Positions 53,437 through 59,587 of a stretch of DNA of 64,000 bases are shown piece after piece; position 1 is the first letter of the stretch; each line of letters opens with the position of its first letter. The translations under genes were made by a program, and so were the position numbers. The notes under the pieces are model-generated. The model saw only the letters and a list, made by a program, of their open reading frames with translations. It was not told the DNA's origin and searched no databases. This DNA comes from Candidatus Bathyarchaeia archaeon (GTDB taxonomy: Archaea > Thermoproteota > Bathyarchaeia > Bathyarchaeales > Bathycorpusculaceae), in NCBI GenBank assembly GCA_049970895.1, contig JBMFMB010000002.1, positions 16,017 through 80,016 of the forward strand, in the 5' to 3' direction.

Positions 53437-53601
53437 AACGCCGCGTAAATTTTCTAAAGTTATATAGAATAGAGAAAGCTTCTAGAAAATTGCCTTCCTC
53501 CCAAGTTTGGAGCCTTAAAACCTAAATTTAGAAAGCCTCATAGAGAGAACGACTGTTAAAATTTAATGGTTAGATTGGACAAGAAAAGAAGAGGCCCGCT
53601 A

Positions 53602-55005
53602 ATGTTCTTCCTAGAGTGCATAGCATGTGGCGCAAGGTTTGAAGCTTATCCGCCACAACATGACTGTAAGAAATGTGGCGGTCTATTAGAGTATAAATTC
53701 GATGATGAAACACTTAAAACTGGCAAATTTTCTGGTTCCTTCACTTTTTGGCGTTATAGGAAACTTTTGCCAAAGGTTAAAAACGTTGTCTCCATGGGCG
53801 AGGGAGGAACCCCACTTATCAAGGCGAAGAGGCTTGCCAAAAACGTTGGGTTAGACGATTTATGCTTTAAAGATGAGACGCGAAACCCAACGAATTCTTT
53901 TAGGGATAGATGCGCCACCCTAATTGTTTCTAACGCTGTCGATTTGGGATATGGGTCAATTGTTTGCGCTACAAATGGAAACCTTGGGGCTTCTTTGGCT
54001 GCATACTGTGCAAAGTCTGGATTAACATGCTATATTGTAGTGCCGAAAAATGTGGATATGGGAAAACTTGCCCAAATGCTCATCTACGACGCTGTAATTG
54101 AAGAGCATGGAGAAATAGTTGACGATTCGCTGAAAATAGCCTATGAATTAGCCAATGAAATGGGCTGGTATCAAGGTTCTGCAGAGTTTAATCCACTATC
54201 CATAGAAGCCCTAAAAACCATTGCGTACGAGGTCTACGAGCAGATGGGTGTACCAGACTGGTTTATAGCCTCCATGGGGAGCGGAGGAACATTATACGCC
54301 ATTTGGAAAGGCTTCAAAGAGCTTCAAATAAGGGGTGAAGCAAACTCACTTCCAAGGATGGTTGGCGTTCAAGCTGAGGGGTGCTCACCAATTGTGAAGG
54401 CTTACATGCAAAATGTTCAAGAGCCTACTCTTAAAACGAAACCTTCAACCCACGCGCTTGCCATACTTGTCCAAAATCCACGATATGGCAAACTGGCCCT
54501 AAAAGCCATCAAAGAATCTCAAGGAACAGCCACATCAGTTTCAGACGAAGAAATCTTTGTGGCAGAGCAAGAGATCGCAAAGCTTGAAGGCATTTTCGCT
54601 GAACCGGCAAGTGCAGCAACATACGCGGCACTAAAGAAACTTGTAAACGGATGTGTGATAGACAGAAAGGCGAAGGTTGTGTGCTTGATAACTGGAAGCG
54701 GTCTAAAGGCAACGGATATTCTCCAAGCCTTAACAAAGAGAAGGAAAACAGCCATTGTAGGGTTGGAGCTTAGCACAAAGGAGAAAATATTGCGGATTCT
54801 ATGTGAAAGGGATGCTTATGGTTATGAATTATGGAAAAAACTTGGAAAAGTGATGACGAGGGCAGCAGTTTACCAGCATTTAGGCGAATTGTCAAGAAAT
54901 GGGTTAATTTCAAGTTATGAAAAGGATGGGCGGAGATATTTTAGAATAACAAAGCGTGGAATGAAAGCCCTCCGTGCACTCGACAACCTAAAACTTCTGC
55001 TATAG
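53602..55005 (+). CDS. Threonine-synthase-like PLP-fold protein with PLP Lys replaced by Arg, fused to a C-terminal winged HTH
   Basis: CxxC...CxxC ribbon, MGEGGTPL, NPTNSFRDR, TNGN, MGSGG, EPASA, ITGSGLK, then ILRIL...YGYELWKKL...VYQHLGELSRNGLI...YFRIT. Confidence 0.88.
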   Translation: MFFLECIACGARFEAYPPQHDCKKCGGLLEYKFDDETLKTGKFSGSFTFWRYRKLLPKVKNVVSMGEGGTPLIKAKRLAKNVGLDDLCFKDETRNPTNSFRDRCATLIVSNAVDLGYGSIVCATNGNLGASLAAYCAKSGLTCYIVVPKNVDMGKLAQMLIYDAVIEEHGEIVDDSLKIAYELANEMGWYQGSAEFNPLSIEALKTIAYEVYEQMGVPDWFIASMGSGGTLYAIWKGFKELQIRGEANSLPRMVGVQAEGCSPIVKAYMQNVQEPTLKTKPSTHALAILVQNPRYGKLALKAIKESQGTATSVSDEEIFVAEQEIAKLEGIFAEPASAATYAALKKLVNGCVIDRKAKVVCLITGSGLKATDILQALTKRRKTAIVGLELSTKEKILRILCERDAYGYELWKKLGKVMTRAAVYQHLGELSRNGLISSYEKDGRRYFRITKRGMKALRALDNLKLLL

Positions 55006-55046: not shown

Positions 55047-55072
55047 AATAGTATAGTTACAACTATACTATT
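55047..55072. promoter_or_regulatory. Perfect palindrome, candidate operator
   Basis: AATAGTATAGTT-AC-AACTATACTATT ending 14 bp before the ECF S-component ATG. Confidence 0.75.
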
Positions 55073-55086
55073 AAAGGTTTTGCACG

Positions 55087-55839
55087 ATGTCGTCAAAGTC
55101 CGCTGCGAAACTGGCAAGGCAGTTAAGCATTACGGGTGTTTTTACAGCCCTTGTTTGTATAGCGACAATAAGCTTCACCGTTTATGTGCCAAGCACTAAA
55201 GGCTATTTTAACATAGGGGAAACAATGGTTTACACATCAGCCTTGCTTTTCGGTCCTTTCGTAGGAGCTTTTGCTGGTGGTGTTGGTTCTATGCTTGCGG
55301 ATGTTTTCCTTGGCTACTATTATTATGCGCCTGCAACTTTGGTGGTTAAAGCCTTTGAAGGCTTTCTTGTCGGTTTTCTCAGTCGAAAAGGGCGGGTTTT
55401 TGTCAAGTCTCATACTAAACGTGAGTGGAGAATTTTCACGATTGAAATAGGTATACTCATAGGATTGCTCATCAGCCTTATTGGTTTCCTCTACTATAGT
55501 GGTCTCGTCGAATTATATTCTGGCATGGTTTCCACGGAAAATCCGGCATCAAAGTTTTTCATTCCGGTTGAGTTTTGGTTTGGAATAGGAATCCTCACAG
55601 TAATCCTAATAACAGTTTTAGCCTTGACATCAGAGCCCGAATTCAGCCTAGCCATGGTTTCATGCGTATTTGGAGGGTTGTTGATGGTTTTTGGCTACTT
55701 CCTCTACGAGCAATTTTTCCTCGGAGTGTTTGCCTTTGCAGAAGTTCCCATAAACATTGGACAGATGACTGTGGGTGTAATTGTTGCCACACCAATCGTT
55801 CGAGTTGTAAAGCAAGCTCTGCCACAGCTTAAAAGCTAA
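55087..55839 (+). CDS. ECF transporter S component (HmpT/PdxU-like)
   Basis: GYFNIGETMVY...LLFGP...GGVGSMLAD...APATLVVKAFEG, C-terminal EVPINIGQ. Confidence 0.85.
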   Translation: MSSKSAAKLARQLSITGVFTALVCIATISFTVYVPSTKGYFNIGETMVYTSALLFGPFVGAFAGGVGSMLADVFLGYYYYAPATLVVKAFEGFLVGFLSRKGRVFVKSHTKREWRIFTIEIGILIGLLISLIGFLYYSGLVELYSGMVSTENPASKFFIPVEFWFGIGILTVILITVLALTSEPEFSLAMVSCVFGGLLMVFGYFLYEQFFLGVFAFAEVPINIGQMTVGVIVATPIVRVVKQALPQLKS

Positions 55840-55869: not shown

Positions 55870-56895
55870 TTGAAACTGCCGTTTGGAAAAGTTCCCATCG
55901 AAATATTGAAGGAAGTTGTCTTCAAAAATTTGGGATTTAAACGCTGGGAGGTTGTCCTTGGACCCTCGGCTGGCTATGATGGCGCCGTTGTAGATTTCGG
56001 TGAGAAATCTTTGGTGGCTTCGATGGACCCTATAACTGGTGCTGTTGAGCGTATTGGCTGGCTTGCAGTAAATATCAACGCAAATGACATTGCCACTTTC
56101 GGCGTAGAGCCAGCCTACTTCCTTTCATGCATATTACTTCCAGAAAACGCCGATCGGGAAATCATTGAGGTTATATGTTCTCAAATGGATGCCGCAGCAA
56201 AGGATTTAAAAATGGCAATTATCGGAGGGCACTGCGAAGTAACACCTGAGCTCACCAATCCGGTTGTTATAGGATGCGCCTTTGGAATAACAGATAAAGG
56301 ACATTATGTCACCGCCGGAGGAGCACAGCCCCTAGACAAACTTATTCTAACAAAAAGTGCCGGCATCGAGGGAACAGCCATCCTCGCAACTGAACGCTAT
56401 AATATGCTTCTAAATATGGGTGCCGATGATAAGCTGTTAAAGTCTGCCCAGAAGTTTTTCGAGAAAATAAGCGTCGTTAAAGAGGGCATTGCAGCCTTCA
56501 AAACAGGCGGAGTAAACGCCATGCACGACCCAACAGAAGGCGGCATTCTTGGAGGCATCCATGAAATGGCGGACGCCTCACAATTAGGCGTTAAAATTTT
56601 CGAAGAGAAAATTCCAGTGGCAGAGGAAACAGCGGAAATCTGTAGGCTTTTGAGTATAGACCCCTTACAGCTGATAAGTTCTGGAGCCATGCTTATCGCG
56701 GCAAAACCAGAATACACAGAATACATCATCAAGAAATTGGAGGAAGAAAAGATTGAAGCATCTGTGATTGGTGAGTTCTTAAGCGACCCGAAAACGCGTG
56801 TAATGGTTCGAAAAGATAAACGCGAAACAAGTCTCCCCCGTCCAGAGTGTGACCATTTATGGTTGGCATTGACAAGGCATAAAGAGTTTCCATGA
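55870..56895 (+). CDS. PurM/HypE/ThiL-superfamily (AIR-synthase-like) ATP-dependent enzyme
   Basis: DPITG, NANDIA, GGHCE, MHDPTEGG, DPLQLISSG; lacks the HypE PRIC end and the PurM GVGTK motif. Confidence 0.85.
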   Translation: MKLPFGKVPIEILKEVVFKNLGFKRWEVVLGPSAGYDGAVVDFGEKSLVASMDPITGAVERIGWLAVNINANDIATFGVEPAYFLSCILLPENADREIIEVICSQMDAAAKDLKMAIIGGHCEVTPELTNPVVIGCAFGITDKGHYVTAGGAQPLDKLILTKSAGIEGTAILATERYNMLLNMGADDKLLKSAQKFFEKISVVKEGIAAFKTGGVNAMHDPTEGGILGGIHEMADASQLGVKIFEEKIPVAEETAEICRLLSIDPLQLISSGAMLIAAKPEYTEYIIKKLEEEKIEASVIGEFLSDPKTRVMVRKDKRETSLPRPECDHLWLALTRHKEFP

Positions 56896-56912: not shown

Positions 56913-57947
56913 TTAACGTCTTTTTAGGAAGAATCTTACATTACGCCACTTGTCCCTAACTATTTCAATGTTACCAGCAACACTTCCATGAATTGAATAG
57001 AAAATATAACAAAGGTAGGTGCATCTTTCACATTCACTAAACTTTCGCCTGAGAGTTTCAAACCTCTCACTTTCCCAGAGGGTTGGCAGCTCAAAAATTG
57101 AGGCAACTGGCTCATGAAGGTGGCAACCGGCAACTTCACCCAGATGATTTATTACGAAGAAACTCTGTAGTGCGCGGCACCTCCAAATTCTCTTATTCTC
57201 CAAATAAAGGTGTTTAACAGCTTCCAAAACTTTTGTTGTAATCAAAACGTTATCATCCTTTTGCTTCATTTCAAGAAGTGAGTCGCAAACCTTCACCATG
57301 GCATCTCTATCCCTTATTATGAAATGGTCTTCCTCCTTGCCTATCTTGAAAAGCGAGTTTGAACATCCAACGGCATCATAAGAGTATAGGGAATACCATA
57401 CTGGGATCCCTCTGCTTAGGAAGTATTTGGTGAAATCAATAATCTCGTAAAGGTTAGCTTGCGAAATGGTCGGCGTTACACTTACGTTGATGCCCTCTCT
57501 GTGAAGCTTTTCAACGGTCTCCATAGCCCTTTTCCATGCGCCTTTAACGCCTCTTATGCGGTCGTTTTTCTCCGGGTTTAAGCTGTCTATTGAAATTGCG
57601 ACGAAATTTGCGTGTCTTAAGGCGGCGATTTTTTCAGCTGCCATGCTACCGTTATCATAAACTGTTGTGAAAAAGTAACGTGATGCATACTCAATTATTT
57701 CATCAATATCCGCCCTTAAAAGCGGGTTGCCGCCAGATATTAAAACTTCGACAACTCCTAATTTTCGAAGAATATCTAGACCTCGTTTAATTTCCTCGGT
57801 TGACAGTTCTTCGCTATCTTGCTCTCGCCAGACATTACATCCAGCACATCTGTAGTTGCATCTTCTTGTTACCATCCATTGAACATGGTAAGGTCTGTTT
57901 GGGACTAAGACCCGTGATACAATGCCTAAGGCTTTCCTAATGGACAT
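56913..57947 (-). CDS. Radical SAM protein with C-terminal SPASM/twitch-like Cys cluster
   Basis: CNYRCAGC, SGGNPLLR, C-terminal C...GC...CERCTYLC. Confidence 0.88.
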   Translation of the reverse strand: MSIRKALGIVSRVLVPNRPYHVQWMVTRRCNYRCAGCNVWREQDSEELSTEEIKRGLDILRKLGVVEVLISGGNPLLRADIDEIIEYASRYFFTTVYDNGSMAAEKIAALRHANFVAISIDSLNPEKNDRIRGVKGAWKRAMETVEKLHREGINVSVTPTISQANLYEIIDFTKYFLSRGIPVWYSLYSYDAVGCSNSLFKIGKEEDHFIIRDRDAMVKVCDSLLEMKQKDDNVLITTKVLEAVKHLYLENKRIWRCRALQSFFVINHLGEVAGCHLHEPVASIFELPTLWESERFETLRRKFSECERCTYLCYIFYSIHGSVAGNIEIVRDKWRNVRFFLKRR

Positions 57948-58126: not shown

Positions 58127-58867
58127 GTGACCCTTCAGAAAGTGGACGTTGTGGTGCTCACCAAAAACAGCGAAAGAGTTCTAGAAAAGTGCCTAAACTC
58201 AATTTACAGGAACATTCCAGTGAACCGCCTAATAATAGTTGATGGATACTCAACCGACCATACCTTAAAGATTGTTGAGAAGTTTAGAGAGAAATACGGG
58301 AACGTGGTATTGTTGATGGACAACGGAACGCGGGGAAGCGCAAGAATGAAGGGTATAAACGAAGCTGTAACGGAGTGGTTCGTCTTTGTGGACAGCGACG
58401 TTGTGTTGTGCGACAAATGGTTTGAGAAAGCCAAAAATCTCGTAAAAGAGGATGTTGGAGGGGTCTGGGGTATAGAAATATGGCATGGCATCAAGAACCC
58501 AATTGTTCTGAAGCTCTTTCTTAAAATAACCAGGAAAATTTTCGATTTACGCGGAGGAACCCATGATCTTCTTGTACGCCGAGACGCAATTAAGGACATA
58601 AACATACCGAGGGATTTGCACGTGTTTGAGGACGCCTTCATTAAGGAATGGATAGAGAGGAAAGGCTATAGTTTAGTTGCAACATATGACCCATACTGCA
58701 TACATTATAGACCACCAGAAGCTTGGACGATAAATGGAAGCATCCGCATACTTATTGATAACCTTCGCTTTGTAACGCTTCGCAAGCTTCCAAAATTATG
58801 CATGGCATACGCGTTCTACACAGTTTATGTCTTGTACGGAAGCTTATCTAGAAAGATTAAAAGCTAG
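58127..58867 (+). CDS. Glycosyltransferase family 2
   Basis: VDGYSTD, FVDSD, VFED. Confidence 0.9.
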   Translation: MTLQKVDVVVLTKNSERVLEKCLNSIYRNIPVNRLIIVDGYSTDHTLKIVEKFREKYGNVVLLMDNGTRGSARMKGINEAVTEWFVFVDSDVVLCDKWFEKAKNLVKEDVGGVWGIEIWHGIKNPIVLKLFLKITRKIFDLRGGTHDLLVRRDAIKDINIPRDLHVFEDAFIKEWIERKGYSLVATYDPYCIHYRPPEAWTINGSIRILIDNLRFVTLRKLPKLCMAYAFYTVYVLYGSLSRKIKS

Positions 58868-58876
58868 GCGACAATT

Positions 58877-59587
58877 TTATGGATAGTCTCTTGAGTACCG
58901 TGATAGCAAAGCCCTTTTTGTCAATATATAAAAAGAGCCAATCATGAACCATAAGAGAGAAACTTTTAGGTAGCCATTTTTCTCAAATCTCCTCATTGAA
59001 ACATGTCCCTTTGCGTTGCGGACGAATTTGATTTTTCCACGCTTCCTTAATTTTAAGGACATATCCACATCTTCGCCACATGCATTTTTCTCAGTGAAGC
59101 CTCCGACTTTTTCAAAGGCTTCCCTTTTAATAGCCACGGCTGTTCCTAATTTTCCAAAACATGGAATTTTTGCCCTTCTTAAAACTAGATTTGACAATTC
59201 CTCTTTGCCGTACGCCAGCCACGCTTTCAACGTTCCCTCTTTAGGAAACAAATCTCCGTATGCCGCCACAACGTTGTCCTCGTTTAGATATGGCAAAACA
59301 ATATCAATCCAGTTTGAGAGGAGAGCTATGTCGGCGTCTACAAAGAGGAAGACGTCGCCTCGTGCCTCCCTTGCTCCGATGTTTCTTCCAGCGGGTATTA
59401 TGCAGTTTTGAATCAATATCTTGTCTGCATATTTTCTGGCGATGTCCACAGTTTTATCCTTAGAACATGAATCAACAACGATTATTTCCTTGTTGTTATA
59501 TGTTTGATTCTTCAGGGACCTTAGGCAGTCTTCTATGTAGTGCTCCTCGTTGAGGGTTGTAACTATTATTGAGACTAATTTTGACAT
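58877..59587 (-). CDS. Glycosyltransferase family 2
   Basis: VDSCSKD, GRNIG, FVDAD, GGF...ED, SMRRF. Confidence 0.92.
   Translation of the reverse strand: MSKLVSIIVTTLNEEHYIEDCLRSLKNQTYNNKEIIVVDSCSKDKTVDIARKYADKILIQNCIIPAGRNIGAREARGDVFLFVDADIALLSNWIDIVLPYLNEDNVVAAYGDLFPKEGTLKAWLAYGKEELSNLVLRRAKIPCFGKLGTAVAIKREAFEKVGGFTEKNACGEDVDMSLKLRKRGKIKFVRNAKGHVSMRRFEKNGYLKVSLLWFMIGSFYILTKRALLSRYSRDYP

Follow-up and report, generated by a model that had tools for sequence, protein, structure and literature searches.

A probable vitamin B6-sensing regulator built on a threonine synthase fold in a Bathyarchaeia archaeon

The gene at positions 53602 to 55005 of a 64,000-nucleotide (nt) stretch from a Candidatus Bathyarchaeia archaeon (assembly GCA_049970895.1, contig JBMFMB010000002.1, positions 16,017 to 80,016 of the forward strand; the whole stretch is the window below) encodes a protein in which a fold-type II pyridoxal 5'-phosphate (PLP) enzyme of the threonine synthase (ThrC) type is followed by a PadR-type winged helix-turn-helix (wHTH). 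Judging from sequence comparisons, this protein is likely a B6-sensing transcription factor on a dead ThrC fold, controlling genes of B6 uptake and synthesis, and not a threonine synthase. Two lines of evidence carry this reading: the loss of the Schiff-base lysine from an otherwise conserved pocket, and a palindrome before a neighbouring transporter gene that accompanies the fused gene across related genomes. The features of the gene are as follows.

53602 to 55005, + strand: ThrC-fold/PadR fusion gene, 467 amino acids plus stop
53617 to 53676, + strand: N-terminal four-cysteine zinc ribbon (C6, C9, C22, C25), common to the nearest canonical archaeal ThrC
53788 to 54696, + strand: fold-type II PLP-enzyme domain, residues 63-365, taken as the sensor (PF00291 PALP, E 5e-76)
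53902 to 53904, + strand: AGG codon, Arg101, at the Schiff-base lysine position, in frame with 53602
54727 to 54765, + strand: flexible linker, residues 376-388, the sole stretch with a predicted local distance difference test score (pLDDT) below 50 in the AlphaFold2 model
54787 to 54975, + strand: PadR-type wHTH, residues 396-458 (PF03551, E 6.5e-12, 45.7 bits against a cut-off of 27)

The open reading frame (ORF) on the + strand also has an upstream in-frame ATG at 53566, which would give 479 residues; 467, from the start at 53602, is the commonest length among the 120 closest homologues. An earlier reading made from the DNA letters alone (the sequence-only reading) had described a threonine-synthase fold with its PLP motifs kept and a C-terminal wHTH of the PadR type, and all of this holds. 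The translation contains MGSGG, GN, EPASA and TGSGLK, the PALP and PadR domains are recognised by Pfam, and the NCBIfam model TIGR00260 (thrC) scores 221.1 bits against a cut-off of 167.1. A second model, NF004170 (PRK05638, "threonine synthase"), stays below its cut-off of 421 with 401.7 bits; its alignment covers residues 4-460 of 467 and model positions 2-441 of 442, the model thus including the HTH tail. No GntR or aminotransferase domain occurs among the five Pfam families matched in this region of the window. The AlphaFold2 model, calculated from an alignment of 72 family members, has a mean pLDDT of 93.1 and a pTM of 0.81, and in a Foldseek search its large domain matches the solved threonine synthases 2zsj, 2d1f, 6nmx and 1v7c with TM-scores on the target of 0.85-0.88, no solved chain spanning the C-terminal tail. 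Within the wHTH, residues Y424, H426, L427 and L430 are nearly invariant across 72 fused proteins, and the zinc-ribbon cysteines are retained in 86-90% of fused rows and in 90-94% of canonical rows. The stretch is contained in four DNA sequencing runs, all of them hot-spring metagenomes, with no RNA run listed among them.

The Schiff-base lysine is essential for catalysis in fold-type II PLP enzymes. In this protein the family motif NPTGSFKDR reads NPTNSFRDR, its arginine being residue 101, and the translated ORF confirms the lysine-to-arginine change and its AGG codon as first proposed. Among 120 close homologues (67-100% identity; Bathyarchaeia where named), residue 101 is arginine in 115, serine in 2 and methionine in 1, and one motif was not found. 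Since lysine occurs in none of the 119 with a readable motif, Arg101 is neither chance nor error, and the single-base error that the sequence-only reading had named among its refuting conditions is ruled out at codon 101. That reading had also proposed to check for arginine in every HTH-fused homologue, and here the check fails: another clade has leucine, isoleucine, methionine or valine, and two subclades have lysine, Arg101 being the rule of one clade and not of the whole family.

The wider pattern comes from 150 representatives at 50% identity, counted as fused if they bear a C-terminal extension of 70-100 residues. At residue 101 the fused representatives have Leu (19), Arg (16), Ile (14), Thr (5), Val (4), Met (4), Phe (3) and, in single cases, Ser, Tyr, Ala, Asn and His; only two (P0121 and P0126) have lysine, against 70 of the 72 representatives without the extension. 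Five further Lys-bearing representatives have extensions of about 215 residues and are a different fusion. A comparison of positions conserved at 85% or more in 68 canonical ThrC with 71 fused proteins shows that Lys101 is the only such column retained below 20% in the fused set (3%, vs 100% in canonical), and N95, P96, T97, S99, D102, R103, G126, N127, G226, G228, T364 and G367 are retained at 90-100%. With nearly all conserved columns kept and Lys101 lost, the pocket is evidently under selection with one catalytic residue removed, and the protein would be a PLP-fold pseudoenzyme turned sensor. The residue that holds the substrate phosphate in ThrC, which we take to be Arg160 in T. thermophilus numbering, falls in a column below 85% conservation in the nearest canonical set, and the claim concerning it was dropped.

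In a FastTree phylogeny of 170 rows, whose root is not proven, the fused proteins form one clade against 32 canonical ThrC with a support of 100, and divide into a clade with a hydrophobic residue 101 (67 rows) and a clade with arginine or lysine (71 rows). The 24 Lys-bearing fused rows form two groups nested among Arg-bearing ones, namely a Bathyarchaeia family and loci labelled Promethearchaeia or Hermodarchaeota, and the minimum number of Lys/non-Lys changes on the tree is three. A single loss of lysine with two later returns from Arg to Lys, for each of which one base change suffices, would fit this; so might lysine losses that occurred separately in several lineages, and a tree with an unproven root does not decide between the two histories.

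The second line of evidence lies immediately downstream of the fused gene.

55047 to 55072, no strand assigned: perfect 12-2-12 palindrome, candidate operator, its centre about 27 nt before the ATG of F1
55087 to 55839, + strand: F1, S component of an energy-coupling factor (ECF) transporter, PdxU/HmpT family (PF07155, 105.3 bits against a cut-off of 26.7)
55870 to 56895, + strand: F4, AIR-synthase-family gene (PF00586 and PF02769), 30 nt after F1

The palindrome, TAGTATAGTT-NN-AACTATACTA, is unique at four mismatches or fewer in the source genome (1.34 Mb in 79 contigs, 97% complete), which leaves no further operator site there at that threshold, and the same palindrome stands 5' of F1 in orthologous loci. 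A survey of 61 genomes of the order at three mismatches or fewer finds it in 27, usually once in each, against three genomes for a reversed-pattern control, and 25 of the 27 sites lie directly 5' of an F1 orthologue. Five sites have no regulator gene within the roughly 1.5 kb fetched on each side; in two of those genomes the regulator is on another contig. The palindrome is present in 26 of the 30 genomes with the fused orthologue and in 1 of the 31 without it, a contrast that is overstated because the relatives are not independent; the single site among the 31 has three mismatches and no F1 beside it. Moreover, in the six genomes that have an F1 orthologue (E < 1e-58) and no fused gene, the fetched DNA contains no palindrome within six mismatches. 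This comparison suggests that the site clearly goes with the regulator, and not merely with the transporter.

Also, at four mismatches or fewer, 34 of the 35 matches in 814 kb of neighbouring loci fall at the 5' end of F1, and the background outside known sites is about one match per 2 Mb. The consensus of 56 distinct sites is TAgTAtAGTT-at-AACTATACTA, with A7, G8 and T16 invariant; it is biased by the search pattern, though its core is more constant than the pattern demanded, and eight F1 genes have no site in this set. A terminator hairpin of the fused gene can be discarded for the palindrome, as its arms are only 2 nt apart and the site accompanies F1 and pdxS where the fused gene lies elsewhere.

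In the hydrophobic clade a different inverted repeat, ATATATAAG-N6-CCTATATAT, is found in the DNA upstream of the regulator gene itself, a stretch that this gene has in common with a divergent F1 or pdxS. Searched genome-wide in five genomes, this motif is at two mismatches no commoner than its reversed-pattern control, only the known sites with 0-1 mismatch standing out, and no regulon was derived from it. As for the Lys-bearing fused members (L061-L078 and L142-L147), they keep the same neighbour as their Arg-bearing relatives, and the Bathyarchaeia group among them has the same operator type, TATTATAGTT-NN-AACTATAATA. Five genomes of a Lys-bearing subclade have additional sites resembling the operator, which stand before two more F1 paralogues. 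Three of these five (G075, G162 and G135, loci L232, L234 and L235, respectively) also have such a site, with 2-3 mismatches, some 45-70 nt upstream of the gene of a 485-residue protein; this protein contains two ABC_tran domains and is probably an energising subunit in which EcfA and EcfA' are fused.

It could be argued that the palindrome is the site of another factor, or a mere promoter element, and that the fused protein is unrelated to it, its adjacency to F1 being synteny. The binding of the fused protein to the palindrome is a prediction, the site is AT-rich and overlaps a TATA-like stretch at the expected TATA position, the genes of the Arg/Lys clade simply lie in tandem, and the motif of the hydrophobic clade does not exceed its control genome-wide. 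Nonetheless, the palindrome follows the presence of the fused gene in the survey and is missing from all six genomes that have the transporter alone, the two regulator clades have two different palindromes, and the linkage of the fused gene with F1 holds for tandem as well as divergent arrangements and extends over several phyla. We consider this explanation quite improbable.

That linkage was quantified in 55 same-class loci plus the window, in which ORFs were called and clustered. F1 adjoins the fused gene in 34 of the 56 loci. In the Arg/Lys clade it does so in 29 of 41 loci, following the fused gene on the same strand; in the hydrophobic clade it does so in 5 of 15, with divergent orientation. 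Among 34 named fused loci drawn from several archaeal phyla, F1 is the neighbour in 24, with labels that include Promethearchaeia, Hermodarchaeota, Thorarchaeota, Nitrososphaerota and Desulfurococcales. Three loci of the hydrophobic clade (L087, L092 and L093, each from a different genus of the same family) have pdxS-pdxT in divergent orientation beside the fused gene. Fused genes hence cluster with pdxS/pdxT or ECF genes, which was the genomic context that the sequence-only reading had proposed to look for. Within the order, all three pdxS-pdxT pairs with upstream DNA available (G082, G056 and G213) have a palindrome of the same type, with 3-4 mismatches, 23-29 nt before them.

The only sequence match of F1 in the Protein Data Bank is chain S of entry 4hzu (E 6.6e-10), the HmpT protein of Lactobacillus brevis, whose bound substrate was identified as pyridoxamine (PMC4860826). 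According to PMC9997740, two of the three known prokaryotic B6 transporters, PdxU and PdxU2/HmpT, belong to PF07155; the same paper calls B6 transport and salvage poorly known. F1 is accordingly predicted to be a regulated importer of B6 vitamers. Of the HmpT pocket residues, Glu41 is kept in F1 (E45), Trp76 is replaced by tyrosine, His84 by K88 and Gln87 by E91, and Tyr120, Asn140 and Gln143 fall in a poorly aligned stretch.

PdxS, PdxT and PdxJ are all absent from the source genome, which has one EcfT and several PLP enzymes. Since B6 is evidently needed by these enzymes and none of the three synthesis proteins is found, the organism must import it. Of the 61 surveyed genomes of the order, just 4 encode PdxS, which suggests B6 auxotrophy and hence dependence on B6 supplied by the community. 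The B6-regulator reading first put forward from the letters of the locus therefore gains support from the F1 and pdxST neighbours and from the operator before F1 and pdxS; DNA binding by this protein, the identity of its ligand and the sign of regulation are what we infer from them.

The database name of the homologues, threonine synthase, points to a different function. The sequence-only reading had suspected a mis-annotation as thrC, and this is borne out by that name, given to homologues of a protein that itself exceeds the TIGR00260 cut-off. The fused gene is the only ThrC homologue of the source genome, whose other PALP genes are one ParB-domain/CysK-like fusion and three of the TrpB2 type. 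In this 97% complete genome homoserine dehydrogenase (hom; PF00742) has no match and thrB (TIGR00191) has nothing over the cut-off (best 38.8 bits vs 168). With neither hom nor thrB, there is no O-phosphohomoserine pathway in the source genome, and the fused protein would be unable to act as this organism's threonine synthase. A separate canonical ThrC is present in many relatives that also carry the fused orthologue. The gene calls around the locus agree with the earlier statement that no thrA, asd or thrB lies near the fused gene in the window; upstream of it are SecY, ribosomal-protein genes and a cytidylate-kinase-like gene. Taken together with the missing PdxS, PdxT and PdxJ, the lack of hom and of any thrB over the cut-off points to B6 and threonine auxotrophy of what would be a small hot-spring archaeon.

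Even if the protein is a regulator of the same genes, it might respond to an amino acid or to an adduct of one with PLP, for instance to threonine, O-phosphohomoserine or an external aldimine, so that the pocket would report amino-acid status. In accordance with this, nearly the whole ThrC active-site shell is conserved, beyond the residues expected to touch PLP, and in one family the fused gene and a canonical thrC are divergently oriented (L053, L054, L058 and L059) or lie near each other (L050 and L060), an arrangement that could point to threonine metabolism. The genes that bear the operator are instead the PdxU/HmpT-family importer, pdxST and the ECF ATPase, and the source genome has no O-phosphohomoserine pathway to report on. 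Moreover, the 200 nt upstream of the fused gene contain no palindrome within six mismatches in any of 41 loci of the Arg/Lys clade, shared thrC intergenic regions included, which dismisses both autoregulation in that clade and control of the divergent thrC. The thrC neighbour may be a remnant of the duplication that gave the regulator. An amino-acid or adduct ligand is in our view improbable.

A further option is a bifunctional enzyme-regulator in the manner of RbkR. Such a protein would still catalyse a PLP reaction, of the ThrC kind or another, either despite the missing lysine or, in the Lys-bearing subclades, by means of it. The TIGR00260 score (221 bits vs 167), the conserved active-site shell and the two fused subclades with lysine would all agree with it, and RbkR is listed as a bifunctional regulator and enzyme in PMC8305020. 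On the other hand, the essential lysine is replaced across the family by chemically unrelated residues, the source genome has no pathway to make the substrate, and many relatives hold their own canonical ThrC. For members without lysine a bifunctional activity is unlikely, the Lys-bearing ones may have it, and as an account of this protein we regard it as highly improbable.

Several observations nevertheless count against a B6-sensing regulator. The residue that replaces the lysine is varied (Arg, Leu, Ile, Met, Val, Thr and others), a variety that gives no positive indication of the ligand. Lysine is present in two fused subclades, whether retained or restored, so that its loss is not required for the role; these members may be Arg-to-Lys revertants that bind PLP covalently. 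The specificity of F1 would follow from its family, and PF07155 also holds riboflavin and other S components; among the HmpT pocket residues that can be mapped, Glu41 alone is identical in F1. The link to pdxST comes from few genomes, three in the order and three genera of one sister-clade family. The thrC neighbours described above and the AT-rich, TATA-like character of the palindrome belong here as well. Finally, four genomes (G106, G181, G212 and G214) have the regulator and no palindrome at three mismatches or fewer, although G181 holds a variant with four mismatches and the fused-gene matches in G106 and G214 are partial.

If the protein is a B6-sensing regulator, the ThrC-derived domain, with its PLP pocket kept and its Schiff-base lysine gone, would be the sensor of the B6 status of the cell. 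Because the lysine is gone, PLP could bind only non-covalently, and free PLP would most likely be bound reversibly; this would suit a sensor, which must follow the free pool and not turn over substrates. Dimerisation would take place through the ThrC-like domain, and the half-sites of the palindrome would be recognised by the two flexibly tethered PadR winged helices. This site would overlap the expected position of the TATA box and the B recognition element if the F1 transcript has little or no leader, and the bound regulator would compete there with the TATA-binding protein and transcription factor B. In the source genome the target would be the F1 gene, probably together with F4, the two genes being probably on one transcript; in relatives able to make B6, the same operator would also serve pdxS-pdxT. 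An ample supply of B6 would probably lead to repression of these genes.

Over three runs, a homodimer modelled with two PLP molecules has an interface score (ipSAE) of 0.84, while the best of three controls scores 0.00. In calibration, 20 of 30 proteins solved as same-chain pairs and 1 of 23 single-chain structures reached this mark. The runs share at least 62% of their contacts, pLDDT is at least 86, and the confident contacts all lie within residues 46-378. Some of the matched threonine synthase entries contain several chains. Threonine synthase is a homodimer, and the pass of the dimer model may on that account reflect likeness to it rather than evidence.

With respect to F4, it falls below the HypE, ThiL and SelD cut-offs; its nearest match in the Protein Data Bank is HypE (2.9e-28), and an Atlas search returns only "AIR synthase family" clusters. 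It is next to F1 in 14 of the 56 loci and also in all six relatives without the regulator (L205-L210), and in a locus labelled Nitrosopumilales (L176) a gene of the F4 type adjoins the fused gene. Given that F4 is a steady partner of F1 and that the only PF08543 kinase of the source genome is a protein of the ThiD/ThiN type, F4 could be an unrecognised B6-salvage enzyme. Beyond F4 lie a radical S-adenosylmethionine (SAM)/SPASM gene (56913-57947, - strand; best NCBIfam match the PTO1314 family, below the cut-off) and two glycosyltransferase family 2 (GT2) genes (58127-59587), which accompany F1-F4 in several relatives (families F13 and F5); these genes are read as synteny.

Elsewhere in the source genome (G000), contig C3 encodes a 576-residue protein with a ParB-like N-terminal half and a CysK-like PALP domain (L002, 649-2379), and on contig C1 a stand-alone ParB-like ORF directly follows one of the TrpB2 genes (L003, 2636-3289). 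ParB-like serine kinases that supply O-phosphoserine to cysteine synthase are known from Thermococcus, and the ParB/CysK-like protein may be a fused form of such a serine-kinase/cysteine-synthase pair.

A wider proposal, which we offer tentatively and hold to be doubtful, is that the fused family is the missing general B6 regulator of Archaea, an independent counterpart of PdxR that reads free PLP non-covalently in a fold-type II pocket and is found in Bathyarchaeia, Asgard lineages, Thermococci, Nitrososphaerota, Desulfurococcales and Methanomethylicota; the target pair of S component and AIR-synthase-like protein would then be a new B6 salvage module, the AIR-synthase relative being a new B6-vitamer kinase or activating enzyme. 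We know of no B6 regulator described in Archaea, and a full-text literature search, whose reach left out supplements and subscription journals, found no description of a ThrC-HTH regulator. New here are the three-way contrast of regulator, operator and transporter in 61 genomes, the operator before pdxST within the same order, the identification of Lys101 as the single lost conserved column, the nesting of Lys subclades in the Arg clade and the scarcity of PdxS in the order. The family is a concrete candidate regulator with a defined 22-nt operator and a small regulon, and the widespread label "threonine synthase" is probably wrong and would credit threonine synthesis to genomes without the pathway.

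Compared with known systems, the fused protein shares with ThrC (TIGR00260, PRK05638) the fold, the zinc ribbon, about 40% identity and nearly all conserved columns, and differs from it in the absence of the Schiff-base lysine, in the added DNA-binding domain and in a genome without hom or thrB. With PadR and LmrR it has in common the PF03551 winged helix, a palindromic operator (a candidate one here) and a dimer (a predicted one here). Classical PadR proteins are small, and their dimers form by way of a C-terminal helix; in the fused protein the wHTH follows a sensor of 375 residues, and the modelled interface is in that sensor domain.

Archaeal vitamin regulators derived from enzymes also include ThiR, for thiamine. 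The riboflavin regulator RbkR offers a similar design, since in it, according to PMC8305020, an enzyme fold of a vitamin pathway joined to an HTH controls the genes of that vitamin in archaea. Both RbkR and ThiR differ from the fused family in their unrelated folds and DNA-binding domains, and RbkR is still an enzyme; moreover, their donor enzyme was part of the vitamin pathway, whereas here the donor is a user of the vitamin.

Finally, MocR proteins keep the PLP lysine, and they combine an N-terminal GntR wHTH with a fold-type I aminotransferase-like domain, in contrast to the C-terminal PadR wHTH and fold-type II ThrC domain found here. In PdxR and other MocR regulators (GabR, TauR), a PLP-enzyme fold with a winged helix likewise serves as the sensor. 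The target genes of PdxR are of the same kinds as those behind the operator here, the bacterial PdxR regulon comprising pdxST, pdxK and pdxU (PMC5320631); the same paper reports MocR regulators as not present in Archaea. The gene set behind the operator would mirror that regulon, and the fused family and PdxR are analogous, not homologous. By this comparison the kind of system would be an enzyme-derived vitamin sensor fused to an HTH.

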